64,000 nucleotides of DNA from positions 83,178-147,177 of the forward strand of contig CAVVLG010000002.1 of assembly GCA_963749085.1 (NCBI GenBank), given 5' to 3'. The notes beneath the pieces were generated by a model. That model was not told the DNA's origin, made no database searches, and was given only the letters and a program-made list of their open reading frames with translations. A program made the position numbers and the translations under genes. This document shows, piece by piece, positions 11,828 through 58,566 of the stretch (within the stretch, counting starts at the first letter, position 1; every line of letters begins with the position of its first letter). Source of the DNA: Candidatus Adlerbacteria bacterium. GTDB taxonomy: Bacteria; Patescibacteriota; Minisyncoccia; Phycocordibacterales; SBAW01.

Positions 11828-14248
11828 ATGTCCGCGTACGACCATAAGAAGATTGAAGCCAAGTGGCAAAAAATTTGGCAGGAAACCGACGCATACAAGA
11901 CTGATACTGATACGAGCAAGCCCAAATACTACGTGCTCGACATGTTTCCATATGCTTCGGGCGCCGGCCTCCATGTGGGGCATCCCAAGGGATATATAGC
12001 CTCCGATATCCACGCGCGCAAACGGCGTATGGAAAGATATCGTGTGCTTCATCCCATGGGTTGGGACGCGTTTGGTCTGCCCGCCGAAAATTACGCAATA
12101 AAAACAGGGACATCGCCGCAGAAAACAACCGACGAATCAATAGCGACGTTCAAAAAACAAATTTCAATTCTCGGCCTCTCCTATGACTGGGCGCGGGAAT
12201 TGGCGACAGATAAACCCGAATATTACAAATGGACGCAGTGGCTTTTCATCAAATTTTTTGAGAAAGGATTGGCGTATAAAAAGAAAGCACTAGTCAATTG
12301 GGATCCGGTGGATCAGACCGTACTCGCTAATGAGCAAGTACTTCCCGACGGCACGGCCGAGCGCTCGGGTGCCAAGGTGGAGAAAAAAGAACTTGAACAG
12401 TGGTTTTTCAAGATTACCGAGTACGCCGATGAACTTATCGGAGATTTGGATAAGGTGGATTGGCCCGCATCAACAAAAATAAACCAGCGCAACTGGATAG
12501 GGAGAAGCGAGGGACTTGTTTTTCACTCACCGGTCAAAGATACCGACATCGTCATAGAAACGTTCTCGGCTCATTTTGAAGCATATTGCGCGGACACCTT
12601 TATTGTCATTGCCCCGGATCATCCGCTCTTGCCGGTGTTGCTCGAAGGAATTTCAAATAAAGAAGAAATTTTATTGGGAGCCAAGGATATGGTTCGCAAG
12701 CGCACTGAACAAGGTAGGGAGGAAGTGAAGGAAGTGGAAGGAATTTTTACTGAACGCTATACGGTGGATCCGATTGGAAACGGTGAGCTTCCTATCTGGA
12801 TCGCAAATTATGCCCTGGCGGATTACGGAACGGGGATAGTGAAATGTTCCGCTCACGATGAGCGCGATTTCGCCTTTGCAAAAAAATACAATATTCCTCT
12901 AAAGGCAGTGCTTGTTCCTGAGGAAAAGGAATCCCGCACTCAAGTGGAGCGCCTCGAAGTGTGTTACAGCGACATGAAAAACGGTATATTGCTTGAACCT
13001 CCAGCATTTGCCGGCAAGCGAGCGAGAGAAGTCCGAAATGAGATAATCGAATTTGTAGAAAAAGAAGGTCTCGCTAAACGTCGTACTACCTACCGCCTCA
13101 GAGATTGGCTTCTATCGCGACAGCGGTATTGGGGAGCGCCTATCCCGATAGTCTATGACTCTGAGGGAGTGCCCCATATCATTCCCGAAGAACATTTGCC
13201 GTGGCTTCTTCCCACCGATGTGGAGTACCTGCCTAAAGGAACCTCGCCGCTTGGTTCATCCAAGGAGTTGTTCGCGCGTACGGAAAAAATATTCGGCAAA
13301 GGATGGAAGCCCGAAATAGACACCATGGATACATTCGTATGCTCCTCGTGGTATTTTTTGCGTTTCGCCGATCCTCGCGACGATAAAGTATTCGCCTCCA
13401 AAGAAGCGCTGCAGAAGTGGCTTCCCGTCGATCTATACGTGGGCGGAGCGGAACACACAGTGCTCCATCTTATGTATGCTCGTTTCTTTACTAAAGTGCT
13501 GCGAGACATGGGGTGCCTCTCCTTTGGCGAGCCGTTTTTGAAACTGCGGCATCAGGGCCTTATTTTGGCCGAGGACGGGCGCAAAATGAGCAAACGCTGG
13601 GACAACGTCATCAATCCCGACGATATGGTTGGGCGCTTCGGGGCGGATTCCCTGCGCGTCTACGAGATGTTTATGGGCCCCTTTGAGCAGCAAATAGCCT
13701 GGAGCACCGACGGGGTGGTGGGCGTGCGCCGCTTTATCGAGCGGGTGTGGGCGATACAGGGCAAGGTAACGGGGTCGATGGTGGGGCAGGAGACTGCCGT
13801 TTTGCTTCAACAAACAATAGAGAAAGTGTCGCACGACATCGAGCTGTTCAAATTCAACACCGCTGTCTCTGCGCTCATGATTTTTTCAAATCACCTCGCT
13901 ACTTTGAAGGAGATCCCAGTATCGGCCTATGGTGTACTTCTGCAGTTGCTTCATCCCTTTGCACCGCATGTAACGGCGGAAATAGCATCGCTCGGGGGCT
14001 ATGAAAAACTCCTGCACACATGGCCTCAGTCAGAAGCACCCTCGGTCCATCGCACGAGCAAAGTGTCAGTTCAAATAAATGGCAAAGTGAGAGGGGCTCT
14101 GGTTCTTCCTCAGGGCGTCTCAGAAGTCGAGGCACTGCAGCTCGCGCGACAGGAGCCCACGGTGGCAAAATGGCTCTTGCAAGGCAAGGAAAAAAGAGCC
14201 ATTTATGTCCCTGGCAGGGCCATAAATTTCATCGTTGACACTATTTGA
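11828..14248 (+). CDS. leuS: leucine--tRNA ligase
   Basis: PYASGAGLHVGHPKGY (HIGH motif). KMSKRWDNV (KMSKS motif). Editing (CP1) domain present. 806 aa. Confidence 0.95.
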   Translation: MSAYDHKKIEAKWQKIWQETDAYKTDTDTSKPKYYVLDMFPYASGAGLHVGHPKGYIASDIHARKRRMERYRVLHPMGWDAFGLPAENYAIKTGTSPQKTTDESIATFKKQISILGLSYDWARELATDKPEYYKWTQWLFIKFFEKGLAYKKKALVNWDPVDQTVLANEQVLPDGTAERSGAKVEKKELEQWFFKITEYADELIGDLDKVDWPASTKINQRNWIGRSEGLVFHSPVKDTDIVIETFSAHFEAYCADTFIVIAPDHPLLPVLLEGISNKEEILLGAKDMVRKRTEQGREEVKEVEGIFTERYTVDPIGNGELPIWIANYALADYGTGIVKCSAHDERDFAFAKKYNIPLKAVLVPEEKESRTQVERLEVCYSDMKNGILLEPPAFAGKRAREVRNEIIEFVEKEGLAKRRTTYRLRDWLLSRQRYWGAPIPIVYDSEGVPHIIPEEHLPWLLPTDVEYLPKGTSPLGSSKELFARTEKIFGKGWKPEIDTMDTFVCSSWYFLRFADPRDDKVFASKEALQKWLPVDLYVGGAEHTVLHLMYARFFTKVLRDMGCLSFGEPFLKLRHQGLILAEDGRKMSKRWDNVINPDDMVGRFGADSLRVYEMFMGPFEQQIAWSTDGVVGVRRFIERVWAIQGKVTGSMVGQETAVLLQQTIEKVSHDIELFKFNTAVSALMIFSNHLATLKEIPVSAYGVLLQLLHPFAPHVTAEIASLGGYEKLLHTWPQSEAPSVHRTSKVSVQINGKVRGALVLPQGVSEVEALQLARQEPTVAKWLLQGKEKRAIYVPGRAINFIVDTI

Positions 14249-14298
14249 CCCATCGTCTACAGTGTGATATATTAAGCAGCATTAAAGAGCTGAAGTAT

Positions 14299-15342
14299 AT
14301 GGCACCCACGAGCGATAAAACCGGTTTCAAACCTAAAGCGATAGTACGCAAACTGCTCGCGAGTCTGCCGGAGCGCTCGCGCATAGTGCTGGAAGCCCGT
14401 TTTGGCCTCGGCACCAACCCCGAGCGCGTGACTTTGGAGTCTATAGGGAAGCGCTACAATATTACGCGCGAGCGGGTGCGACAAATAGAAAATCACGCCC
14501 TCACACAACTCAAAAAATCCCCTGCGTTTATCGACGCCGACGCGGCTTTTCATGAGCTTGAGCGTATCGTCGACTCTCTCGGCGGCATCGTCTGCGAGAG
14601 CGACCTTCTCAATTTCATTACCAAAGACAAGTCGATGCAAAACTATATTTATTTTCTCCTCGTGCTCGGCAACCCGTTCAAGTTCCGCAAAGAAGACGAT
14701 GAAGTAGAGCGCTGCTGGTACGTGGATCCGGAGCTTGCCAAGAAAGTGGAGCAGGCGCTGCGCAGCCTCTACGAGAGCCTCTCTGACGAAGACCTCATAC
14801 CGGAGGGAGAGATGATTGACCGCTTCCTTAAAGAGATGCAGGACATCAACGACAAGCACCGCAACGCCGAAGTTGCCAAGCGCTGGCTTTCTATTTCAAA
14901 GAAAATAGGCAAGAACCCGCTCGGCGAATGGGGCCATGCGTCTTCTCCCAACGTTAAAACCAAAGGGGTGCGCGATTACGCCTACTTGGCGGTCAAAAAA
15001 CACGGTAGCCCGTTGCACTTCAAAGAAGTTGCGGCTCTTATCGAAAAAATGTTCAACCGTGCGGCACATGTGGCGACCACGCACAACGAGCTCATCAAAG
15101 ATGATCGTTTTGTGTTGGTTGGTCGCGGGATGTACGCACTTAAAGAGTGGGGCTACGCCTCCGGGGTTGTGCGCGACGTCATCCGTAACATTTTGCGCGA
15201 CAACGGACCGCTCACGAAGGAGCAAATAATTGAGAAGGTGCTCAAAGAGCGCCATGTCAAACCTGGCACTGTGGTCGTCAACCTCCAAAATCAGAAATAT
15301 TTCAAGCGCGGCAAGGACGGCAAGTTCGTGTTGGTGAAATAA
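14299..15342 (+). CDS. putative transcription regulator with an N-terminal sigma-70 region-4-like HTH and a C-terminal HARE-HTH (RpoE-delta-like) domain
   Basis: RSRIVLEARFGLG...ERVTLESIGKRYNITRERVRQIENHALTQLKK. C-terminal HGSPLHFKEVAALIEKMF...DDRFVLVGRGMYALKEWGY. ATG at 14299. The track start at 14245 is a TTG overlapping the leuS stop. Confidence 0.6.
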   Translation: MAPTSDKTGFKPKAIVRKLLASLPERSRIVLEARFGLGTNPERVTLESIGKRYNITRERVRQIENHALTQLKKSPAFIDADAAFHELERIVDSLGGIVCESDLLNFITKDKSMQNYIYFLLVLGNPFKFRKEDDEVERCWYVDPELAKKVEQALRSLYESLSDEDLIPEGEMIDRFLKEMQDINDKHRNAEVAKRWLSISKKIGKNPLGEWGHASSPNVKTKGVRDYAYLAVKKHGSPLHFKEVAALIEKMFNRAAHVATTHNELIKDDRFVLVGRGMYALKEWGYASGVVRDVIRNILRDNGPLTKEQIIEKVLKERHVKPGTVVVNLQNQKYFKRGKDGKFVLVK

Positions 15343-48541: not shown

Positions 48542-49094
48542 TATGAGCGACCTTTCCGCGCGTATTGAAGCCGTTCTGTTTGCACTGGGCCGACCCGCCT
48601 CGCGCGAAGAACTCGCTCGCAAGCTCAGCGTATCAGCTGATGCACTTGAAAAAGCGTTGAACGATCTAAGCGAGGAGAAGCACGGCGTCGTTGTGGTTGA
48701 CGACGGCAGAGAATTGCAGCTGCGCGCCTCGCCAAGGGTCGCAGAGCTTATCGAGCGCATCCGCAAAGAAGAGTACACCCGCGACATAGGCCGTGCGGGG
48801 CTTGAAGCGCTCTCCGCGATACTCTACCGCGGACCCCTCACGCGGGCGGAAATAGATTTCATACGCGGCGTCAATTCCTCGCAAACCTTGCGTACGCTCT
48901 CCGTGCGCGGACTCGTACGCAGAATCACCAATCCCAAAGACGAGCGGTCCTTCCTGTACGAGCCGACCACCGAGCTACTCTCACAGCTGGGTGTCGCGCG
49001 CGTGAGCGAATTGCCGGAGTTTAAACGTATTCAAGAGAAATTAGCCACGCTCGAAGAAGCGTACCGAGCGAAGGAGACTACGGATGCCGTATGA
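48534..49094 (+). CDS. scpB: segregation and condensation protein B
   Basis: Tandem winged-helix. IEAVLFALGRPASREELA...LEALSAILYRGPLTRAEIDFIRGVNSSQTLRTL. ATG overlaps the scpA stop. Confidence 0.85.
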   Translation: MNDMSDLSARIEAVLFALGRPASREELARKLSVSADALEKALNDLSEEKHGVVVVDDGRELQLRASPRVAELIERIRKEEYTRDIGRAGLEALSAILYRGPLTRAEIDFIRGVNSSQTLRTLSVRGLVRRITNPKDERSFLYEPTTELLSQLGVARVSELPEFKRIQEKLATLEEAYRAKETTDAV

Positions 49095-49993
49095 CCCTTA
49101 GGGAGATTCCCCCAACGCTTATGGTCTCCATTGCCGGCACCGTACTCGGGTGCTTGTTGTTCGCTGGATTCCTTGCGTACCACTATGCGCACCAAACTAC
49201 TGCCACTAAGGTAGCCTTCCAAGCGTCGCTCACGCTCAGTCCTACCTTGCTTCTCGCCCAGTCTGCCGTGTTGTACGACCCGAGCGACGGACGCATCCTG
49301 TTTGAAAAAAAAGCCGATGCCGTGCGTCCCCTGGCATCGCTAACGAAATTGATGTCGGCGGAGGTAGTACTCAATAACGAGGAACAATTCCTCAACACGC
49401 CCATTACCATGGCGACGTCAGACTTAGCCACGGCAGGAGATGCGGGGGATTGGGGTTTTCATGCGGGCGACGTGGTAACGCTGGGAAATTTGGTTAAATT
49501 CGGGCTCGTCGCTTCTTCAAACGACGCCATGGCCGCCGCGGCCACAAGCCTCGGCCCCAACTACATAAACGACATGAACCGCACGGCAGGAGCGCTCGGG
49601 CTCATGAGCACGTATTTTTTAAATTCAACCGGGCTTGACCTCAACGACGATACCTCAGGCGCCTACGGATCGGCAACGGATGTGGCGCGACTCGCGGCGG
49701 CATTTCTCAAGACCTATCCGCAATACTTTGAGCTAACCGAGTACCCGACTATAGCCATTGATGACAGCGGCAAAGTGCTCGTGGCCGACGCAACGGCACG
49801 GCCCATTCAAAATATCCCCGGGCTTATCGGCGCCAAGACCGGGTATACCGATTTGGCCGGCGGCAACTTGGTCGCGGCGTTTGATATTGATATCGGACAC
49901 CCCCTTATCGCGGTGGTGCTGGGGTCAACGGAGGAGGGCCGCTTCAGCGATATACGGACTATAATAAACGCTGCACGCACCCAATACCTATGA
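49091..49993 (+). CDS. D-alanyl-D-alanine carboxypeptidase (S11 peptidase, PBP5/6-like)
   Basis: SLTKLM (SxxK), SSND (SxN), KTGYT (KTG). Confidence 0.82.
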   Translation: MTLREIPPTLMVSIAGTVLGCLLFAGFLAYHYAHQTTATKVAFQASLTLSPTLLLAQSAVLYDPSDGRILFEKKADAVRPLASLTKLMSAEVVLNNEEQFLNTPITMATSDLATAGDAGDWGFHAGDVVTLGNLVKFGLVASSNDAMAAAATSLGPNYINDMNRTAGALGLMSTYFLNSTGLDLNDDTSGAYGSATDVARLAAAFLKTYPQYFELTEYPTIAIDDSGKVLVADATARPIQNIPGLIGAKTGYTDLAGGNLVAAFDIDIGHPLIAVVLGSTEEGRFSDIRTIINAARTQYL

Positions 49994-51039
49994 ACGCCTT
50001 CGACGTACTGCGCATATTCCTCCCCGCAACCGTCGCCTTTCTTTTCGGCATTGCGCTGACGCCTTTTTTGACCCACTTTCTCTACCAGCGGCAGATGTGG
50101 AAGCAAAAGGGGGGCAAAATAGGGCTCGACGGAAAGCCGGCCGAAGTATTCAATCAGCTCCACGAACACAAAGAAGTCGGCACGCCGCGCTTCGGCGGCG
50201 TCATCGTGTGGGGCAGCGTCGTCTTTACCGCCGCGCTCTTTCAGATACTGTATATATTCTTTCCCAGTTCCTTCAATAATTTGGCGTTCATAAGCCGCAG
50301 CCAGACGTGGGTTCCTCTCGCGGCGCTTCTCGTCGGTGCTCTGGTCGGACTCATGGACGATTTTTACGAAGTGCAGGGCAGGAGGGGACTGCCGTTACGC
50401 GTGCGGCTGAGCATCGTGGCGATAGTGGGACTTGTGTGCGCCTACTGGTTTTACGCCAAGCTCGGCGTTTCATCCATTTCCTCCTTCGGTGCGCCGATAG
50501 AGCTTGGCGTGTGGTTCATACCGTTCTTTATCCTCGTGACGCTCTTCATCTACGCCGGCGGTGTGATAGACGGCCTCGACGGCCTTGCAGGCGGCACCTT
50601 TTCCTCCGTGTTCGCCGCTTACGCCTGCATCGCGTACTTCCAGGACCAGATGAATCTCGCGGCTTTGTGCGCGGCCATAGCCGGAGGGCTCCTCGCCTTT
50701 TTGTGGTTTAACATTCCTCCCGCGCGCTTCTATCTCTCCGAAACCGGCACCATGGGTTTAACGCTTACCCTCGTCGTCGTAGCGTTTTTGACCGATAAAC
50801 TGGGGGGCGGCAGGGGAGTCATTGTGCTCCCTATTATTGCGCTGCCCTTGGTCGCGACTGTGCTTTCCAATATCGTGCAAATGCTGAGCAAAAAAATATG
50901 GGGGAGAAAACTGTTCCGCATCGCGCCGCTGCACCATCACTTTGAAGCCCTTGGCTGGCCCTCCTACAAGGTAGTGATGCGCTACTGGATAGTAGGACTT
51001 ATTGCGGCCATTATCGGCATAAGCATCGCGTTGCTGTGA
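49990..51039 (+). CDS. mraY: phospho-N-acetylmuramoyl-pentapeptide transferase
   Basis: Polytopic. GLMDDF, GGVIDGLDGLA motifs. Confidence 0.92.
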   Translation: MNAFDVLRIFLPATVAFLFGIALTPFLTHFLYQRQMWKQKGGKIGLDGKPAEVFNQLHEHKEVGTPRFGGVIVWGSVVFTAALFQILYIFFPSSFNNLAFISRSQTWVPLAALLVGALVGLMDDFYEVQGRRGLPLRVRLSIVAIVGLVCAYWFYAKLGVSSISSFGAPIELGVWFIPFFILVTLFIYAGGVIDGLDGLAGGTFSSVFAAYACIAYFQDQMNLAALCAAIAGGLLAFLWFNIPPARFYLSETGTMGLTLTLVVVAFLTDKLGGGRGVIVLPIIALPLVATVLSNIVQMLSKKIWGRKLFRIAPLHHHFEALGWPSYKVVMRYWIVGLIAAIIGISIALL

Positions 51040-52133
51040 AAAAGTCCATAGACACTCCATTCCTGCTGACGCTCTCCGCCTTGGTGGTGTGCGGATTGCT
51101 CATATTCACTTCCGCAGCGCTCTCGCTGTTAGCCGAGGACGGTGGTGCTACGTTTACGTCGGTTGCTGTAAGCCAGTTGCTCTTAGGTCTCGTGTGCGGA
51201 AGCATCGGCTTGGTGTTTTTCGCCAAGATAGATTATCGCATTTGGAAACCCTACACGATTTACCTTTTTGCTGTAGGCGTCATGCTTTCGCTCCTGACCT
51301 TTGTGCCCCATATCGGACTGTCACTGAAAGGTGCGGCCCGCTGGATTGTCGTCGGCCCTCTTTCCTTCCAGCCGGAGGAAATACTGAAATTCGCGACCGT
51401 AATGCTCTTGGCAGCGGTGTTTTCTGCGCGCATGCGCACAGTCAACACCATCCGTGGCGGCATCATTCCATTGATCCTTATCGCCGGTAGCGCAGGAGTT
51501 ATTTTGCTCATTCAGCCCGATACAGCAGGCGTCTTGGTCATCGGGATGGCGGGCTTGGCGATGCTATACGCTGCAGGAGGTAGGATCTCCCACATGCTCG
51601 CGCTCATCCTCCTCGGCGTCCTTATCATAGGCATCGCCGCCTATGAGCGACCCTATATCGCCCAGCGCATCGAGACTTTTCTTAATCAGTCCGCTGATCC
51701 GGAAGGTGCCGGCTTTCAGATTGAGCAGTCCCTTATTTCAGTAGGCTCGGGTGGTCTCACGGGGCAGGGCTTTGGCCAGGGTATAGAAAAATTTTCCTAT
51801 CTTCCCGAGCCCATAGGCGATTCTATTTTTGCTGTTGTGGGCGAGGAGTTTGGTTTTATCGGAAGCGCGGCACTTGTCCTTCTATATGCGGCTATAGCGC
51901 TCTTGGGGTTGCGCATAGCGGCGAAGGCGCCGGATCCCTTCGGAGGACTCTTGGTGGTCGGTTTTATCATCCTCATCGTCGGTCAGTCGTTTTTTAATAT
52001 TGCTTCGGCAATAGGGTTGGTACCCTTGGTGGGGGTTCCTTTAGTATTCGTCTCTCACGGTGGTACTTCGCTTGCGGTGTCACTTGCCGAAGTAGGCGTT
52101 GTTCTCAGTGTTTCAAGGAGAATGAAGAGTTAA
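51036..52133 (+). CDS. ftsW: SEDS-family peptidoglycan glycosyltransferase FtsW/RodA
   Basis: Ten TM helices and a SEDS pattern. The GTG start overlaps the mraY stop. Confidence 0.88.
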   Translation: MKKSIDTPFLLTLSALVVCGLLIFTSAALSLLAEDGGATFTSVAVSQLLLGLVCGSIGLVFFAKIDYRIWKPYTIYLFAVGVMLSLLTFVPHIGLSLKGAARWIVVGPLSFQPEEILKFATVMLLAAVFSARMRTVNTIRGGIIPLILIAGSAGVILLIQPDTAGVLVIGMAGLAMLYAAGGRISHMLALILLGVLIIGIAAYERPYIAQRIETFLNQSADPEGAGFQIEQSLISVGSGGLTGQGFGQGIEKFSYLPEPIGDSIFAVVGEEFGFIGSAALVLLYAAIALLGLRIAAKAPDPFGGLLVVGFIILIVGQSFFNIASAIGLVPLVGVPLVFVSHGGTSLAVSLAEVGVVLSVSRRMKS

Positions 52134-52201
52134 AAAAACGCCCCCAGAATATCCCCACGTCCTCCTTTGACAATAGCCAAGCAGACCACATACTTCACCA
52201 T

Positions 52202-54265
52202 ATGGAAGGAGCCCCTCGTCCTGAAGCGAAGACTGAACCTGTAGATTCTGAAGCGACAAAGAAAGGTGAGCAGCTAAGTAAATCGACATCAACCGGAGAG
52301 AAAGACTCTACAAAGGGAATGAAGGATATCGCCCTGGAGTATCTCGAAAAGTGGGAAAACCCCGCTCCAGACCTCTCTAAGGAAGGCATAGAAAGGAGAG
52401 CAACCCGCGTCACCGAAGCAATTGAGTTGGCAAAGACAAAGCGGGCAGAAGCAGAGAAAAAGAAGGGGGAGAGGGCGGCCCGCGTTGCTGAAGTAATTGA
52501 ACTTACCAAAGCGAAACGAACCGAATCGAAAGTACAGGAGGGCCCGCAGGAGACGACTCCCAAGGATTGGGAGGAAAGCCTCGGTGCGGTAAAGGCGCAG
52601 CAGGAAAAAGCCGCGGCTGAAGAAACACGAGAGGTGTCGGGAGGCGGCGTCCAAGCAACAAAGGCGGAAACAAAAGGAGCTTCTGAAGCTGCCCCTGTGA
52701 CTCTGGAACAGTTGAAACTAAACCTTGATAATGCCCGCGCGGAACAATTGAAGGCGGTGCACGACCACGAAGAGGCGCGTCGCCATCATATTGGCTTGTT
52801 CGGCCGAACACAAGAAAAAATATTCGGCAAGAAGGACACACTTGAAAAATCTGATTCGTATAAACGGGCCGAGAAAGAGTACCAGGAAGCAAAAGTCGGC
52901 TATGCACAATTCTTGCTCAAGAGTAGCTTAGATGAGAAAGGGGTGCCTTTGCCAAGGAAACAAAACGAGGTTATTGGTTTTGTGGAAGAGGAAATGAAGG
53001 CTTATGCGGCGCTTCTTACTCCCGTTTCAGTTGAAAAAGCGGGTTTGGTGCAGAAACTATGGCGCGGATACACGCAGATGCCGAGAGGAAATCGGATAGC
53101 GTTGACGCTTGCTCTTTCGGGAGTAGCCGCCGGACTCGTTTCATTTTCCCTTGGGGCAAGCGCCGCCGCTGCCGCCGGGGTCTTGGGGTACCGAATTGTA
53201 AGAGGAGGAATCGGAACTGCTGTTGGCACCATTTCTACTGGGCTTTATGGAAAGTATCGTGGTTCCAAAATCGAGAGACAGCAAGGTTTGCAGCGACAGA
53301 ACGTCATACGCGGACTTTCAATGACCAATATGAACGATGCCATTAAAACAGTAGAATCGCTCCAAAAAGAAAGAGAGAAATTCGATACCAGAACGGGTTG
53401 GAGAAAGGCACTCATCGCCGTAGCTGTTGGAGGTACAACAGCGGGAACGCTGTCGCTGCTCCACGGTGTTTCTGAAGCGGCGGTTGGAATACCAATTGCA
53501 GGAACTGGAGCCGACCTTCCACCTGGGCCAACTGGTGCGGCGGAAATAAAGGATTACTCTATATTCACCGGACCGCATGCAACCGGCGCAGGCATTGATC
53601 CAAGAACAGAAGGTCCGCCAATTATGCCTATGCCCAAAATGTCTTTCCCGGGCGATATCCAAAATCCAGGAGGTATGGCTGCACCCGGCACATCTTTCCC
53701 GGTTACTTCCGAAGCGCTGCCAGATATCACCCCGCCGAAGGATTACTCTATATTCACTGGCCCACATGCAACGGGCGCAGGCATTGATCCAAGAACAGAA
53801 ACTCCGCTGATGGGCGACGCACCTAAGGACTATTCAATCTTTACCGGACCGCATGCAACCGGCGCGGATATTGATCCGAGGACCGAGGGTCTGCCGTACG
53901 CGCCTGGAGGTTCCCTGGGGGGTGTAACGTTCCACGTCGGACCGGGAGACAATTTATGGAGGCTCAACGAACGAATGCTTAGTACGAATAAAGATTTTAC
54001 GACGCTCAATACGGCTCAAAAACATTGGATGCTCTCCACTATCGAGAAACAGTATCATCAGATGAGTCAGCAAGATCTTCAAGATAGGCATTTTTCGCGC
54101 GATACGAGCGGAAAATTCAATGTCAACAATATACAGACGGGTCAAGAGGTCAAACTGGTCAATGTGAGTGGGTCGAGGATGATCAATGATTTATTGCAGA
54201 GTGCTCGCAATCTCACTCCGGAGCAGCAGCGCAGTATTTTGCTGAACCGACTCGGAAAAAGATGA
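52202..54265 (+). CDS. hypothetical 687-aa membrane protein. It has a K/E-rich coiled-coil N-terminal region, two TM helices, three 21-aa tandem repeats (DYSIFTGPHATGAGIDPRTE) and a LysM-like C-terminal segment.
   Basis: Domain order read from the translation. VTFHVGPGDNLWRLNERML resembles the LysM core. CATACT hexamer 7 nt before the ATG. Confidence 0.6.
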   Translation: MEGAPRPEAKTEPVDSEATKKGEQLSKSTSTGEKDSTKGMKDIALEYLEKWENPAPDLSKEGIERRATRVTEAIELAKTKRAEAEKKKGERAARVAEVIELTKAKRTESKVQEGPQETTPKDWEESLGAVKAQQEKAAAEETREVSGGGVQATKAETKGASEAAPVTLEQLKLNLDNARAEQLKAVHDHEEARRHHIGLFGRTQEKIFGKKDTLEKSDSYKRAEKEYQEAKVGYAQFLLKSSLDEKGVPLPRKQNEVIGFVEEEMKAYAALLTPVSVEKAGLVQKLWRGYTQMPRGNRIALTLALSGVAAGLVSFSLGASAAAAAGVLGYRIVRGGIGTAVGTISTGLYGKYRGSKIERQQGLQRQNVIRGLSMTNMNDAIKTVESLQKEREKFDTRTGWRKALIAVAVGGTTAGTLSLLHGVSEAAVGIPIAGTGADLPPGPTGAAEIKDYSIFTGPHATGAGIDPRTEGPPIMPMPKMSFPGDIQNPGGMAAPGTSFPVTSEALPDITPPKDYSIFTGPHATGAGIDPRTETPLMGDAPKDYSIFTGPHATGADIDPRTEGLPYAPGGSLGGVTFHVGPGDNLWRLNERMLSTNKDFTTLNTAQKHWMLSTIEKQYHQMSQQDLQDRHFSRDTSGKFNVNNIQTGQEVKLVNVSGSRMINDLLQSARNLTPEQQRSILLNRLGKR
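53552..53890 (+). repeat. three intragenic copies of a roughly 63-nt repeat (starting at 53552, 53741 and 53828) encoding the 21-aa motif
   Basis: Near-identical nucleotide copies seen directly. Spacing is irregular (189 nt and 87 nt between repeat starts) and the copies are coding. Confidence 0.8.
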
Positions 54266-54298: not shown

Positions 54299-54607
54299 AT
54301 GGATGCAGCTAAGATAAAACAATCGATGATAGAGCAGTGGGGGTTGAGCGCGGTGTCTCCCGCAGAGCAGGACGAGTATATCGACCGTATCGGTAAACTA
54401 CTCTATCAAGCTGTCATTTTGCGAGTAACGGAGGACATGACCGATGAGGACAAGGATGCCCTAGATACGTTCATGAGCCAAAACCCGGAAGCCGATGCGG
54501 TACAGATCCTTGATTTCCTCAGCACGCGTATCCCTGACTTTTCTCAGATACTGGGCGAAGAAACTGCGAAACTCAAGGAATTGATTGCTCCTCCCGTAGC
54601 GGCGTAA
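54299..54607 (+). CDS. small acidic hypothetical protein (102 aa)
   Basis: TATAAT 13 nt upstream. D/E-rich. No known motif. Confidence 0.45.
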   Translation: MDAAKIKQSMIEQWGLSAVSPAEQDEYIDRIGKLLYQAVILRVTEDMTDEDKDALDTFMSQNPEADAVQILDFLSTRIPDFSQILGEETAKLKELIAPPVAA

Positions 54608-54641: not shown

Positions 54642-57371
54642 TCAACGTAACGCGGAAGCGATTTCTTTCTCTATGTTCTCCCGTGGACGCCCATACAACT
54701 GATAGGACAACTCCCGCATCGCATCAACCTGTTCCATACTTCCCCTCGCGAACGGCAGTGTTTCAATATTAAAGGGAGTTGCCGGTCTACCACCGATGAG
54801 CAAGCGCACAAATGCATTGAAGTTGTCGACCTGCATAAGGTCGCTAGCGGAAAACGGCGGGGAGAACTGTTTTTCCAGAAATTCGGCATCATCTGCTCCG
54901 ACGCGGAAGGCGCACAGGGAGCCGACGTTGCCGAACACCGCATCCCGTATCTCTTCGGTAAGCTGGGCAATGAACTGATGCGCCACGGTAAGCGATAACT
55001 TGTATTTCCGCGCTTCCGACAGAATGGTAGCGATTGAAGGGGTTGCAAAATTCTGGAACTCGTCGATATGGAGATAGAAGGGCGGCAACTCCTTGCCAAA
55101 GGAATCAGCCCTCGAAAGTGCTGCGATTTGAAATTTACCGACGATAACTAGCCCGAGCAAATTGGCGTTGAGATCGCCGATTCGGCCCTTAGCGAGGTTA
55201 ACCAAAAGAATTTTCCGAGTATCCATTATCTCCCTGAAGTTGAATGCAGATTTTTGCTGAGCAATAATCGGACGTACGAAATCGTTGGAGGTGAACTGAT
55301 CGAATTTGCTCGTGACGTATGGACCGTAGTTTTGCAAGCCCTGTTCGCCGGTAGCCTGCTCAGCTATGCCCTCCCAAAACGCTTTTACAATCGGGTTTTT
55401 GCATACAGTCAGTTTGTGGGCGCGAAAAACTGGGTCACTGAATATCCGCCCGATATCAAGGAGCGTGTTGCCGCTTGCCGGATCCTCCATTACGAGGAGC
55501 GCCGCGTTACGGAAGTACTGTAAGAATGCGGGTCCCATACTTTCCGGTATGTCACCAAACAATTTTTGAAAAATACCAATAAGCTCGTCGACGACCAACG
55601 TTTTCTGTTCGGGTCGTGTGACATCGTACTCGAGCATGTTAAGCCCCATCGGTCGCTCAGTGTGTGCCGGATCGAAATAAATAACATCCTGTTGACGCTC
55701 TGGAGGTATAGCGGAGAGAATGTCCAATACGTCAGTGCCATGCGGGTCGATGAAACAAACACCACTGCCGGCGCGGATATCCTGCACCACCATGTTTTTG
55801 AGAAGCGACGATTTGCCGGTGCCGGTTTGGCCCACCAAATAAAAGTGCCGCAATCTATCTTCGGCTTCGATATATACTTTGGTCTCAAGATTGCGGAAAC
55901 GGTTGATGCCAAGCAGAGTACCACCTTTCGGGAGCGTCGAAGGTGCGGGTGCTACCTGACTTTTCTCCTGTTGCAGCTGGGGCGCCGCCACAATGCCGCC
56001 CGGCCGGGGCAAGTGCGCCATGGTCGCAAGCTCAGTTGCAGAAAGGGGGAGTGAGGCGTCCTCATCGAGCGTGCGGTAGGAAAATGCATGAGCGAATTTT
56101 TTAATGCCGCGCGGCGAAATAACTTTAAACCGAAGTGCGTTACCTGCGGTGTCGGTAAATTGTTGAAACGGCGCCTCCAAATCGAGCAAAATGGCCTCTG
56201 CACGCTCCCGTGTCGGGGCCGACGCAACGAGGCGAATATCGGCATGAAGAATAGGACTTTCTATCTTGTGTTCGATATTTTTTATGCGTGGATCGTCGGG
56301 AGGCGGCCGTTTATCCTGCTCAAGTCTTTTATTCGGCCCAAAAAATGAAGCTATTTCTCCCAGTATACGAGGAATTCCCGTCTTAATGTCAGTGGCGCGA
56401 TTGATAGGGAAGCCCGCGCGAATATCCTGCAGAGCGCTCCGATAGCGGGCATCGAGTTCGTGGCCCTGGGGTGACACGACGAATTGCACAGCCGCGCCTT
56501 CGCTGATCTCGTCCAATTTGGAAAACGAATTGAGCAACACATCGAGCGGGTCGTTCGCGAAGGCCTCAAACGTGCGCAGCGAATAAATGCTTCGTGCCGT
56601 GAATGAGGCGCTCGCGGCGGCAATCTCGGCGCCCGGAGCAAACGCATTGTAGTCGTTGTGGCGTTCGGTCAAGCGCGCTGCGGGGTATAGGGAGAGTAGT
56701 TGTTTCTCAAAGAGTGCTTTGCGCGTGCTCGGTACGGCAATATATACCGTCGTGTGCACCAATCCCGCGGGATTGGCTATTTCGAAAGAAAAATATTCGC
56801 CATGTTTGGCATCCATTTGAAGCATGCCGCGGTAGAACTGCTCCATAAGAGAAATCGAGTCACGAATCGTTTTTACTGGATCGGTTGATGTATCATTCTC
56901 CGCAGTTGAGGAAGGAAGCGTTACCTCAAAAAGCGTCAGCGAAAGAGTTTGTCGGAGTGACTTTGTAACCGCGGCTTTGACAGGAAGTCCCTCGCGCACA
57001 TATTCGACCAGCACACGATGAAAATCGTCAGCGAGATGAGGGTTGCCGGTCGATTCAGCCACGGTTATAGCCTTCAAAACCCCTTTTTCTTGTAGGACCT
57101 GAATCAGTTCTCCCATCCGTTCATCGTGCTGCTCTGGGCTAAGTTCCAGCGTAATCATCCCAAGTTTCTCGGGAGAAATAGTTTGGCTTGAAATACTTTT
57201 TTGCCAGTGTTCAGAAACAGTTTGTTGTGCGGCGGCGGCACTGGAATGCTCTTGCGGCACACCCTCCGCTCGCAGCTTTGCTTCAAGCGCCGCTGCTTTA
57301 GCCCGCAGTTCCTGCAGTTCCGTCCGAGCGGCATTACTCGTCGGTACTTCGATAGAACGGGATGTCTCCAT
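54642..57371 (-). CDS. VirB4/TraC/TrbE-like ATPase of the FtsK/HerA superfamily. The soluble N-terminal domain of about 450 aa is VirB4-like.
   Basis: Walker A GQTGTGKSS. CFIDPHG. Walker B LHIDEFQNF. ARKYKLSLTVAHQ (Arg finger). 909 aa with no TM helix. TATACT 6 nt before the ATG. Confidence 0.75.
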   Translation of the reverse strand: METSRSIEVPTSNAARTELQELRAKAAALEAKLRAEGVPQEHSSAAAAQQTVSEHWQKSISSQTISPEKLGMITLELSPEQHDERMGELIQVLQEKGVLKAITVAESTGNPHLADDFHRVLVEYVREGLPVKAAVTKSLRQTLSLTLFEVTLPSSTAENDTSTDPVKTIRDSISLMEQFYRGMLQMDAKHGEYFSFEIANPAGLVHTTVYIAVPSTRKALFEKQLLSLYPAARLTERHNDYNAFAPGAEIAAASASFTARSIYSLRTFEAFANDPLDVLLNSFSKLDEISEGAAVQFVVSPQGHELDARYRSALQDIRAGFPINRATDIKTGIPRILGEIASFFGPNKRLEQDKRPPPDDPRIKNIEHKIESPILHADIRLVASAPTRERAEAILLDLEAPFQQFTDTAGNALRFKVISPRGIKKFAHAFSYRTLDEDASLPLSATELATMAHLPRPGGIVAAPQLQQEKSQVAPAPSTLPKGGTLLGINRFRNLETKVYIEAEDRLRHFYLVGQTGTGKSSLLKNMVVQDIRAGSGVCFIDPHGTDVLDILSAIPPERQQDVIYFDPAHTERPMGLNMLEYDVTRPEQKTLVVDELIGIFQKLFGDIPESMGPAFLQYFRNAALLVMEDPASGNTLLDIGRIFSDPVFRAHKLTVCKNPIVKAFWEGIAEQATGEQGLQNYGPYVTSKFDQFTSNDFVRPIIAQQKSAFNFREIMDTRKILLVNLAKGRIGDLNANLLGLVIVGKFQIAALSRADSFGKELPPFYLHIDEFQNFATPSIATILSEARKYKLSLTVAHQFIAQLTEEIRDAVFGNVGSLCAFRVGADDAEFLEKQFSPPFSASDLMQVDNFNAFVRLLIGGRPATPFNIETLPFARGSMEQVDAMRELSYQLYGRPRENIEKEIASALR

Positions 57372-57438: not shown

Positions 57439-58566
57439 ATGAAGATTTTATTCACCGGGGGAGGATCAGGAGGACATTTTTACCCCATAATTGCCGTAGC
57501 GGAAGCCGTAAACGACCTCGTGCGAGAGAGAAAGCTTCTTGAACCGCAGCTCTATTACGCGGCGCCCGAGCCCTATGATCGAGAGATGCTGGTGGCACAA
57601 AATATCATGTTCGTCCCCACTGCGGCGGGAAAGATTCGCAACTATTTCTCCGTCCTCAATTTTTTCGATTATTTCAAAACAGGGTGGGGGACCTTCCGTT
57701 CGGTACTGCGCATTTTCTTTCTCTACCCCGATGTGGTATTCGGCAAAGGAGGTTACGTGAGTTTCCCGACGTTGCTTGCCGCAAAGTTGTTCCGCATACC
57801 GGTTGTCATCCACGAGTCTGATGCCGATCCAGGCCGTGTAAATCGCTGGGCCGGAAAGTTTGCTCAAAAAATTGCGATTTCCTATCCGGAAGCCGCGCAC
57901 TACTTCCCGAAAGAAAAAGTCGCTTTTACCGGCAACCCCGTGCGCAAAGCGGCGCTATTCCCGGCGCGCGAGGGCGCGTTCGAGTTTCTTAAACTCAAAC
58001 ACGATATACCGGTCATCTTTATCACCGGTGGCTCACAGGGAGCACAAGCCATAAACGAATGCGTGCTTGAGGCTCTTCCACAGCTCATTGAGAAATATCA
58101 GCTAGTGCACCAGACCGGCGAGGAGAATTTCAAGGAGGTCGAGGGCAGAGCGAAGGTCGTTCTTGAAAATTCTCTCCATGCGGATCGCTACAAGCCGTTC
58201 GGCTATCTCAACGATCTTGCCATGCGCATGAGCGCGGGTGCCGCAGCTCTGGTCATCTCGCGCGCGGGCTCAACCATCTTCGAGATAGCCGGGTGGGGGC
58301 TACCGTCGATAATCATTCCCATACCGGAGCCCATCTCGCACGACCAGACGAAGAATGCGTTCGCCTACGCGCGCTCGGGTGCGTGCGTAGTTATCGAGCA
58401 GAACAATCTGACTCCCGGTCTCCTCGCTGCAGAGATACAGAGAATTTTGGACAAACCAGAATCCGTGCATAAGATGGCCGAAGCCGCGCGCGCATTTGCT
58501 CGGCCCGATGCTGCCAAAGCGATAGCCAACGCGCTCATTGATATTGCTCTCTCCCATGAAGTCTGA
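57439..58566 (+). CDS. murG: undecaprenyldiphospho-muramoylpentapeptide beta-N-acetylglucosaminyltransferase
   Basis: MKILFTGGGSGGHFYPIIAVAEA. C-terminal GT-B domain. Confidence 0.92.
   Translation: MKILFTGGGSGGHFYPIIAVAEAVNDLVRERKLLEPQLYYAAPEPYDREMLVAQNIMFVPTAAGKIRNYFSVLNFFDYFKTGWGTFRSVLRIFFLYPDVVFGKGGYVSFPTLLAAKLFRIPVVIHESDADPGRVNRWAGKFAQKIAISYPEAAHYFPKEKVAFTGNPVRKAALFPAREGAFEFLKLKHDIPVIFITGGSQGAQAINECVLEALPQLIEKYQLVHQTGEENFKEVEGRAKVVLENSLHADRYKPFGYLNDLAMRMSAGAAALVISRAGSTIFEIAGWGLPSIIIPIPEPISHDQTKNAFAYARSGACVVIEQNNLTPGLLAAEIQRILDKPESVHKMAEAARAFARPDAAKAIANALIDIALSHEV

Follow-up and report, generated by a model that had tools for sequence, protein, structure and literature searches.

A protein family, probably of Patescibacteria, with a predicted membrane anchor, a probable LysM derivative and a fixed DUF5663 partner gene

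Patescibacteria account for much of the bacterial diversity that is uncultivated, and little of the machinery of their envelope and cell division has been assigned. FtsN is localized to the septum and activates FtsW–FtsI through a short peptide in its linker, and MapZ (also called LocZ) of streptococci is a landmark of the division site under the control of StkP and PhpP. In Bacillus subtilis, the transmembrane (TM)-plus-LysM protein YneA targets FtsW, and it depends on its LysM domain, which binds peptidoglycan (PMC13396833). Here we report a computational analysis of a 687-amino-acid (aa) protein encoded directly after ftsW in a 64,000-nucleotide (nt) stretch of DNA from Candidatus Adlerbacteria (hereafter referred to as the window). 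Judged from sequence comparison and structure modelling, the protein belongs to a sparse family that is described in no database, and its gene and an adjoining DUF5663 gene form a conserved unit among housekeeping genes. We propose, with a probability of roughly 0.45, that the protein is an envelope-spanning anchor that, with the DUF5663 protein, would physically couple a cytoplasmic component to the cell wall during wall growth or division.

The 687-aa protein resembles YneA in carrying a LysM-type domain, here predicted to lie outside the cell, on a membrane-anchored protein, and its gene directly follows that of FtsW, on which YneA acts. Unlike YneA, it has a cytoplasmic module that is both large and conserved, its gene has an obligatory partner, and it is about six times the size of YneA, which has roughly 100 aa; moreover, YneA is under SOS control, for which the 687-aa gene provided no evidence. 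The layout of FtsN is analogous, with a cytoplasmic N terminus, a membrane anchor, a long, disordered Pro-rich linker in which a short peptide is conserved and, at the C terminus, a domain that binds peptidoglycan, and a genomic link to division genes is common to both. However, FtsN has a SPOR domain and a single TM helix, whereas the 687-aa protein is predicted to have a hairpin plus a TM helix and, as its cytoplasmic part, a 300-aa region with a folded bundle; the two share no sequence relationship. MapZ likewise offers an analogy only, in its cytoplasmic N terminus, TM helix, flexible linker and extracellular wall-binding domain. A PP2C-type phosphatase gene located directly upstream of the family member P0013 (locus L009, 3984–5087), at that single locus, recalls the StkP/PhpP control of MapZ, whereas Pfam scans of the 687-aa protein and of the family gave no MapZ family match.

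To define the family, we searched 1.84 billion cluster representatives with residues 200 to 687 using HMMER (E ≤ 1e-3) and obtained 32 proteins, the query and 31 others, of which five including the query lay below 1e-10. Profile iteration resolved two separable modules, a membrane module (residues ~172 to 430) present in 29 of the 32 representatives and a C-terminal module (residues ~573 to 687) present in 20, and a local profile of residues 170 to 440 matches 29 of the 32 with E values of 1e-35 to 1e-88. The conserved membrane module consists of a three-helix bundle, an uncharged hairpin of 24–37 aa, a basic helical loop of ~72 aa and a TM helix, all of which occur in the 687-aa protein, and sequence identity within the family is very low (17–32%). 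A preliminary description, made from the letters of the window alone, had proposed an unusual modular build for the 687-aa open reading frame (ORF), and the family comparison and modelling bear this out; the ORF and the C-terminal strings quoted from it are present as described. The ORF is real and coding, because homologues exist and its repeats show a pattern of synonymous substitution, and an identical protein (P0001) is on record in one assembly, on a contig of 518 kb. Each examined locus carries one copy. None of the 32 representatives has a meaningful Pfam match, and searches of NCBIfam, PHROGs, PADLOC and the PDB sequences gave no match for the 687-aa protein itself. Word-indexed protein searches returned only the protein itself for the full-length query, nothing for the alignment A4, probably because low-complexity words filled the candidate list, and nothing for A3 (371 candidates only). 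No relative was found in genome contigs searched with the full protein or with the DUF5663 alignment, in metagenome contigs searched with an alignment of the three closest members, or in viral contigs, GenBank phages and plasmids searched for the 687-aa protein.

The C-terminal domain was modelled by AlphaFold2 (AF2) with a predicted local distance difference test score (pLDDT) of 91.3 and a predicted template modelling score of 0.82. The model, which contains a LysM-like core, runs in the order strand, helix, three inserted helical elements, strand and helical hairpin (E3–6, H13–21, H25–28, H32–47, H51–56, E77–80, H87–97 and H101–114). LysM (PF01476) adopts a compact β–α–α–β fold of about 44 residues. 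Candidate points of similarity in the 687-aa protein are V..GD.LW.I in the first strand and helix, L...G.....I..G..I.L in the last helix and strand and, in the AF2 model, the two-stranded sheet. The domain differs from LysM in a helical insertion of ~25 aa between helix 1 and helix 2 and in an extra, conserved helical hairpin after the core (motif A..LT..Q...I), and the window copy has five additional residues before the last strand.

The Pfam LysM profile has 43 positions and a gathering threshold of 20.9 bits, and the whole 687-aa protein gave no LysM match at E ≤ 1. The first half of the C-terminal domain, when its 125-aa segment is scanned alone, matches LysM at E = 0.0057, and the best Foldseek match of the C-terminal model is a LysM structure. 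When the insertion was excised, LysM was the sole or top Pfam match for 6 of 10 members, and two of the ten homologues passed the threshold (22.2 and 22.1 bits, over profile positions 3–42 and 1–41), with a third reaching 18.9 bits. Among 177,635 PDB sequences, the top two matches of the family profile A3 were the LysM domains of LytE (8i2e, E = 0.0018) and SafA (7r1l, E = 0.0028), and in both cases the two LysM halves were aligned across the gap. The module profiles A4 and A3 had no significant non-LysM match in the PDB, and neither the whole protein nor its C-terminal fragment matched a SPOR domain in Pfam at E ≤ 10. The C terminus is thus likened to LysM with some justification, as in the preliminary description: the PDB matches and the spliced homologues make remote homology probable, but the domain scores below the Pfam threshold and would be a LysM derivative with an insertion, not a canonical LysM domain. 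LysM domains bind glycan chains of peptidoglycan or chitin, and the putative function of this domain is most likely peptidoglycan binding.

The Pro-rich stalk that precedes this domain contains three copies of a 21-aa motif; shuffles of the region never exceeded 11 of 21 matching residues. These copies had been described as tandem repeats that are nearly identical at the DNA level, taken as a hint of recent duplication. Three copies do exist, but they are not arranged head to tail: their start-to-start spacings of 189 and 87 nt leave unrelated spacers of 42 and 8 aa, their flanks are no more alike than random sequence (8–13 of 30 nt identical), and Tandem Repeats Finder detected no array at the region. 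Nor are they nearly identical, as the 63-nt cores differ at 4 nt between copies 1 and 2 (94% identity), at 12 nt between copies 1 and 3 (81%) and at 16 nt between copies 2 and 3 (75%). Nearly all of these differences are silent, with synonymous to non-synonymous ratios of 4:0, 10:1 and 14:1 among the differing codons. The closest homologue, P0002, with 41% identity across an alignment of 488 aa, retains a single copy, KDYSIFTGPHATEAGIDPRSE, with 19 of 21 residues matching, and its DNA differs from the window copies at 15–18 of 63 positions, again mostly synonymously. This pattern indicates purifying selection on a discrete 21-aa peptide motif, rather than recent duplication alone, because gene conversion would have homogenized the silent sites as well; a duplication may have occurred, but it is not the main story. 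The motif matches no family in Pfam, NCBIfam, PHROGs or PADLOC, and a degenerate DNA pattern for DYSIFTGPHAT found 0 matches in JGI metagenome contigs, in agreement with the preliminary description, which recognized it from no family. Among the 18 members with both modules, the stalk varies in length from 44 to 179 aa, and seven have short stalk repeats of their own that are unrelated to the motif, such as SDNYADNPP (four copies, P0002) and VNDAAFA (three copies, P0006).

The N-terminal half begins with a charged region in which, as previously described, the first 300 aa are rich in K (12%), E (15%) and A (12%) and contain internal repeats, here a duplication whose best pair of 13-aa windows matches at 9 of 13 positions, compared with a maximum of 8 in 200 composition-preserving shuffles (0/200 reach 9). 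Residues 1 to 171 cannot be aligned even with P0002 and P0003. By contrast with this variable region, the three-helix bundle is conserved in 29 of the 32 representatives and was modelled by AF2 with block-mean pLDDT values of 84–97 (alignment A4, 24 sequences); it has no significant fold or sequence match in the PDB. It is followed by an uncharged stretch that measures 24–37 aa across the family (mode 32), with basic flanks on both sides (mean charges +4.6 and +5.7). We read this stretch as a hairpin, because 32 aa are too short for two full TM helices plus a loop; its AF2 model has poor confidence. The membrane region also includes a weakly hydrophobic Gly/Thr segment. The positively charged loop opens with the family consensus motif YxGxRxxRGxxGxxxG, has a net charge of +9 in the 687-aa protein (family mean +5.7) and contains a helix (residues 336 to 370) with block-mean pLDDT values of 66–94, above 85 over most of its length. 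In most of 24 members, the 30 aa past the TM helix are net negative (mean −1.6).

The topology most consistent with these features has the N terminus inside, the hairpin, the cytoplasmic helical loop of ~72 aa, the TM helix at residues 402 to 424 and the C-terminal 260 residues outside, because of the positive-inside rule and the 300-aa charged N terminus without a signal peptide. The two-TM hairpin of the preliminary description is therefore retained as a hairpin but was incomplete, since the charge pattern across 24 members points to one further TM helix; with two full TM passes only, the LysM-like domain would be cytoplasmic. No fold in the PDB matches the membrane module significantly. A Foldseek resemblance to the α-pore-forming toxins MakA and AhlB was discarded as meaningless (TM scores 0.16–0.17, E > 0.6), weak holin matches (phrog_20, E = 0.059; PF07332 in one member) were put down to Gly/Ala-rich helices, and a Tox-REase-5 match (E = 0.012) fell below the threshold.

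The gene for the 687-aa protein is paired with a gene for an acidic, soluble 102-aa protein with a net charge of −11 and neither a TM segment nor a signal peptide. This protein matches Pfam DUF5663 below the cut-off (E = 0.0017, 19.3 bits against 23.7) and is 52% identical to the product of the equivalent gene beside P0003. A DUF5663 gene of ~100 aa adjoins the family gene in each of the 11 loci retrieved for proteins that have the membrane module (the window, L002, L003, L004, L005/6, L008, L009, L012, L013, L014 and L015), usually immediately downstream with a gap of 7–66 nt and, in two loci, upstream, once with a 4-nt overlap. A literature search on DUF5663 and DUF8128, the family of a neighbouring ATPase, found nothing; we take both, together with DUF5667, which is present in L010, to be Pfam families derived from metagenomes. 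The presence of these three families, the many orphan T4CP genes reported for Patescibacteria, the longest contig of 518 kb and a compact set of housekeeping genes all suggest that the host belongs to this phylum. The C-terminal third of the DUF5663 profile (54299–54607) gave weak, non-significant PDB matches (E = 0.07–0.09) to Helicobacter pylori HP0062 (2gts and 3fx7), which is presumably a small protein of WXG100/ESAT-6-like type that folds as a helical hairpin; this resemblance, if real, would fit a secreted or ATPase-recognized substrate. A role in a defence system is unsupported, as PADLOC found nothing for either the 687-aa protein or DUF5663. The features of the locus are listed in Table 1.

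Table 1. Features of the 687-aa protein and neighbouring genes. Coordinates are those of the 64,000-nt window; residues are those of the 687-aa protein.
Feature	Residues	Window coordinates	Strand	Basis or remark
mraY		49990-51039		Before ftsW
ftsW		51036..52133	+	Directly 5′ of the 687-aa gene
Whole ORF		52202..54265	+	ATG to stop, 687 aa plus stop
Variable, highly charged K/E/A-rich N-terminal region, predicted cytoplasmic	1-171	52202..52714	+	Composition, net charge
25-aa tandem duplication	66-115 (66-90 vs 91-115)	52397-52546	+	
Conserved three-helix bundle, predicted cytoplasmic	173-277 (helices 173-208, 218-240, 251-277)	52718..53032	+	AF2
Uncharged Gly/Ala/Ser-rich 32-aa stretch, read as a membrane hairpin with both ends cytoplasmic	299-330	53096..53191	+	Hydropathy
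Positively charged, mostly helical loop (~72 aa), predicted cytoplasmic	331-401	53192..53404	+	
TM helix, 22 aa, predicted to carry the C-terminal half outward	402-424	53405..53473	+	Hydropathy maximum 1.47
Pro/Gly-rich stalk (16% Pro), predicted extracellular, probably disordered	425-572	53474..53917	+	
Repeat copy 1, KDYSIFTGPHATGAGIDPRTE	450-470	53549..53611	+	
Repeat copy 2, KDYSIFTGPHATGAGIDPRTE	513-533	53738..53800	+	Peptide identical to copy 1
Repeat copy 3, KDYSIFTGPHATGADIDPRTE	542-562	53825..53887	+	One amino-acid change
C-terminal globular domain, LysM-like β–α…α–β core	573-687	53918..54262	+	AF2
DUF5663 gene, 102-aa acidic soluble protein		54299..54607	+	33 nt downstream of the 687-aa gene
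909-aa soluble ATPase, type IV coupling protein (T4CP)/HerA-like, DUF8128		54642..57371	-	Convergent with the gene pair; possible associate
murG		57439-58566		After the three-gene block (687-aa gene, DUF5663 gene, ATPase)

In the window, the gene pair lies in the order scpA, scpB, S11 D-Ala-D-Ala carboxypeptidase, mraY, ftsW, 687-aa gene, DUF5663 gene, convergent DUF8128 ATPase, murG and gltX, and the ORF starts 68 nt past the ftsW stop codon. Seven loci had enough flanking sequence for counting neighbours, and wall or division genes adjoin the pair in four of them: ftsW and murG in the window, ftsA–ftsZ 1.8 kb downstream in L009, and a divergent gene for a LysM–LysM–M23 peptidase upstream in L003 and L004. 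The position of the gene, immediately past ftsW and ahead of murG, these neighbours and an architecture that parallels those of FtsN, MapZ and YneA lead us to favour wall growth or division as its role. In the anchor that we propose, the variable N terminus and the three-helix bundle would sit in the cytoplasm, the hairpin and one TM helix would hold the protein in the membrane, and the Pro-rich stalk would reach outward with its three copies of the 21-aa peptide, at its tip the LysM-derived domain gripping peptidoglycan. The DUF5663 protein, made together with the 687-aa protein, may dock on the cytoplasmic bundle, and the 21-aa motif could be a short peptide that docks or regulates an extracellular partner, much as the linker peptide of FtsN acts on the septal synthase.

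Several results weigh against this interpretation. The C-terminal 125-aa segment reaches 17.0 bits against Pfam LysM, over profile positions 2–28 of 43 only, and the 687-aa protein with its insertion excised scores 15.6 bits, both under the threshold. An hhalign comparison with four bona fide LysM domains, those of the M23 peptidases encoded beside the pair, aligned the first 16 columns only (P = 7.7e-4, probability 25%), and the Foldseek match to LysM has a non-significant E = 0.5. Twelve of the 32 representatives have a different, unrelated C-terminal region, with no detectable relation to the LysM-like domain, and no family member carries an annotation. Finally, apart from DUF5663, the neighbours vary by locus (NusA/EF-Tu, ProRS, UvrD, ribosomal and tRNA-synthetase genes), so that the link to division rests on few loci.

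Other readings of the same features deserve comparison. An ordinary LysM-containing cell-wall hydrolase or autolysin is highly improbable: LysM domains commonly accompany hydrolase domains, and genes for LysM–LysM–M23 peptidases neighbour the pair in L003 and L004, but Pfam found no catalytic domain in any of the 32 representatives (M23, NlpC/P60, amidase, lysozyme, transglycosylase and CHAP were all absent), NCBIfam, PHROGs, PADLOC and a PDB sequence search found none in the 687-aa protein, and the whole segment from the TM helix to the LysM-like domain is a low-complexity, Pro-rich stalk. According to the preliminary description, its reading would be refuted if the repeat unit or the C terminus mapped confidently to a well-characterized domain, for instance that of a cell-wall hydrolase; no such match emerged. 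The protein could instead serve an epibiotic bacterium as a surface adhesin or in host contact; the stalk and LysM-like head would then extend past its own wall and bind that of the host, and the repeats would set reach or valency. Such a function, which we consider rather improbable, would account for the rapid evolution of the N terminus and stalk, with lineage-specific stalk repeats in 7 of 18 members and a stalk span of 44–179 aa, for the swapping of heads (LysM-like in 20 of 32, something else in the others) and for the family identity of only 17–32%, and cultivated Patescibacteria live attached to host bacteria (PMC10633639). However, the adhesin reading presupposes an epibiotic lifestyle for this organism, the gene lies among single-copy housekeeping genes with no compositional anomaly, and what is conserved is a cytoplasmic and membrane module with a cytoplasmic partner, a pattern that a simple adhesin would rarely show.

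The 909-aa ATPase encoded next to the pair suggests a further alternative, in which the core of a translocation machine would be the soluble T4CP/HerA-like ATPase and the 687-aa protein would anchor it to membrane and wall, possibly with DUF5663 as an adaptor. The ATPase has a Walker A motif (GQTGTGKS) at residue 514 and weak matches to TraD/VirD4-type families in Pfam and NCBIfam. Canonical VirD4/TraD coupling proteins attach to the membrane through their own N-terminal TM helices; the 909-aa protein has no N-terminal TM segment, a point in favour of an external anchor. A DUF8128 ATPase lies within three genes of the pair in two of the seven loci, the window and L005/L006, where it recurs two genes downstream, and the family members concerned (P0001 and P0008) are very divergent, at 19% identity; by our own rough estimate, from about two such genes per genome (PMC12102498), the chance expectation is ~1.5% per locus. 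Patescibacteria contain 5,713 VirD4-like genes, only 148 of which lie near virB4, that is, within about 20 genes by the criterion of that study, so that thousands lie away from it; possible exaptation has been raised, and equivalents of VirB8 are largely undetected (PMC12102498). The position of a membrane-anchored envelope protein beside a T4CP-like ATPase also recalls the accessory proteins of monoderm type IV secretion systems (T4SSs), such as VirB8-like proteins and VirB1-like hydrolases with LysM or M23 domains. The 687-aa protein differs from these in matching no T4SS component family in Pfam or NCBIfam, the ATPase is absent near the pair in the other five of the seven loci and lies on the opposite strand in the window, and the DUF5663 protein shows no significant similarity to the N terminus of the ATPase (E = 0.14). 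No VirB4-like protein was found among the window ORFs scanned, a subset of those in the 64 kb. We regard a translocation machine as unlikely, if slightly more probable than an adhesin. It is less likely still, indeed a long shot, that the 687-aa protein, DUF5663 and the orphan ATPase together form an unrecognized, Patescibacteria-specific envelope machine, in which an ATPase repurposed from conjugation would be tethered to membrane and wall and the 21-aa peptide would be an extracellular control element; such a machine might act at the division or host-contact site, for example in DNA or protein transfer across the envelope or in wall remodelling.

The 909-aa ATPase also matches phrog_5156, of unknown function, over nearly its full length (E = 1.9e-66) and PADLOC mad8 (E = 4.8e-14), and it has 22–23%-identical relatives in Bacillus phages, such as gp156 of phage G. 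The division and wall cluster of the window (49091–52133 and 57439–58566) is rearranged: the S11 carboxypeptidase gene precedes mraY, mraY and ftsW overlap by 4 nt without murD between them, and ftsW and murG are set apart by three genes that do not belong to the division and cell wall (dcw) cluster. A foreign origin of this three-gene block is unsupported, as the GC content is 0.49–0.57 throughout. Within 52167–52211, a promoter-like site (TTGACA, 16 nt, CATACT; 10 of 12 positions matching) stops 8 nt short of the ATG at 52202; the scan gave 9 such sites against 5.7 expected, which makes the match weak evidence. No Shine–Dalgarno sequence was found upstream of this ATG, and AAGGAG occurs just past it; a leaderless mRNA is one possibility and a true start farther downstream another, the next in-frame Met being residue 40. 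Across all 64 kb, no Rfam family reached its gathering score, so that the scan detected neither tRNAs nor riboswitches nor any other known RNA. Elsewhere in the window, a 365-aa protein (14245–15342, + strand) has Sigma70 region 4 at its N terminus (residues 37 to 91) as its sole Pfam match, with the remaining ~270 aa unmatched. In two other family loci, L010 (4877–8476) and L011 (4877–8481), 3.6 kb without a called gene lie downstream of P0019, which has the C-terminal domain only, and ftsW is ~5 kb away past this stretch; an alternative genetic code, a pseudogene and a non-coding element are candidate causes.

We view the family as a probable membrane-anchored, wall-binding scaffold rather than a new principle, and a division-linked tether is a moderately supported hypothesis for its role. 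The analysis newly defines a family with a fixed DUF5663 partner, models two domains of it confidently, identifies a probable LysM variant that carries a helical insertion and escapes standard domain searches, and provides a first functional context for DUF5663. The family may also supply a membrane partner for the orphan ATPases resembling coupling proteins, of which thousands are reported in Patescibacteria (PMC12102498). The 21-aa motif shows cleanly how selection keeps several copies of a short peptide, here predicted to be extracellular, and could serve as bait for an interacting protein. If the link to division is true, the family would be a lineage-specific counterpart of wall-anchored regulators of the FtsN or MapZ type.

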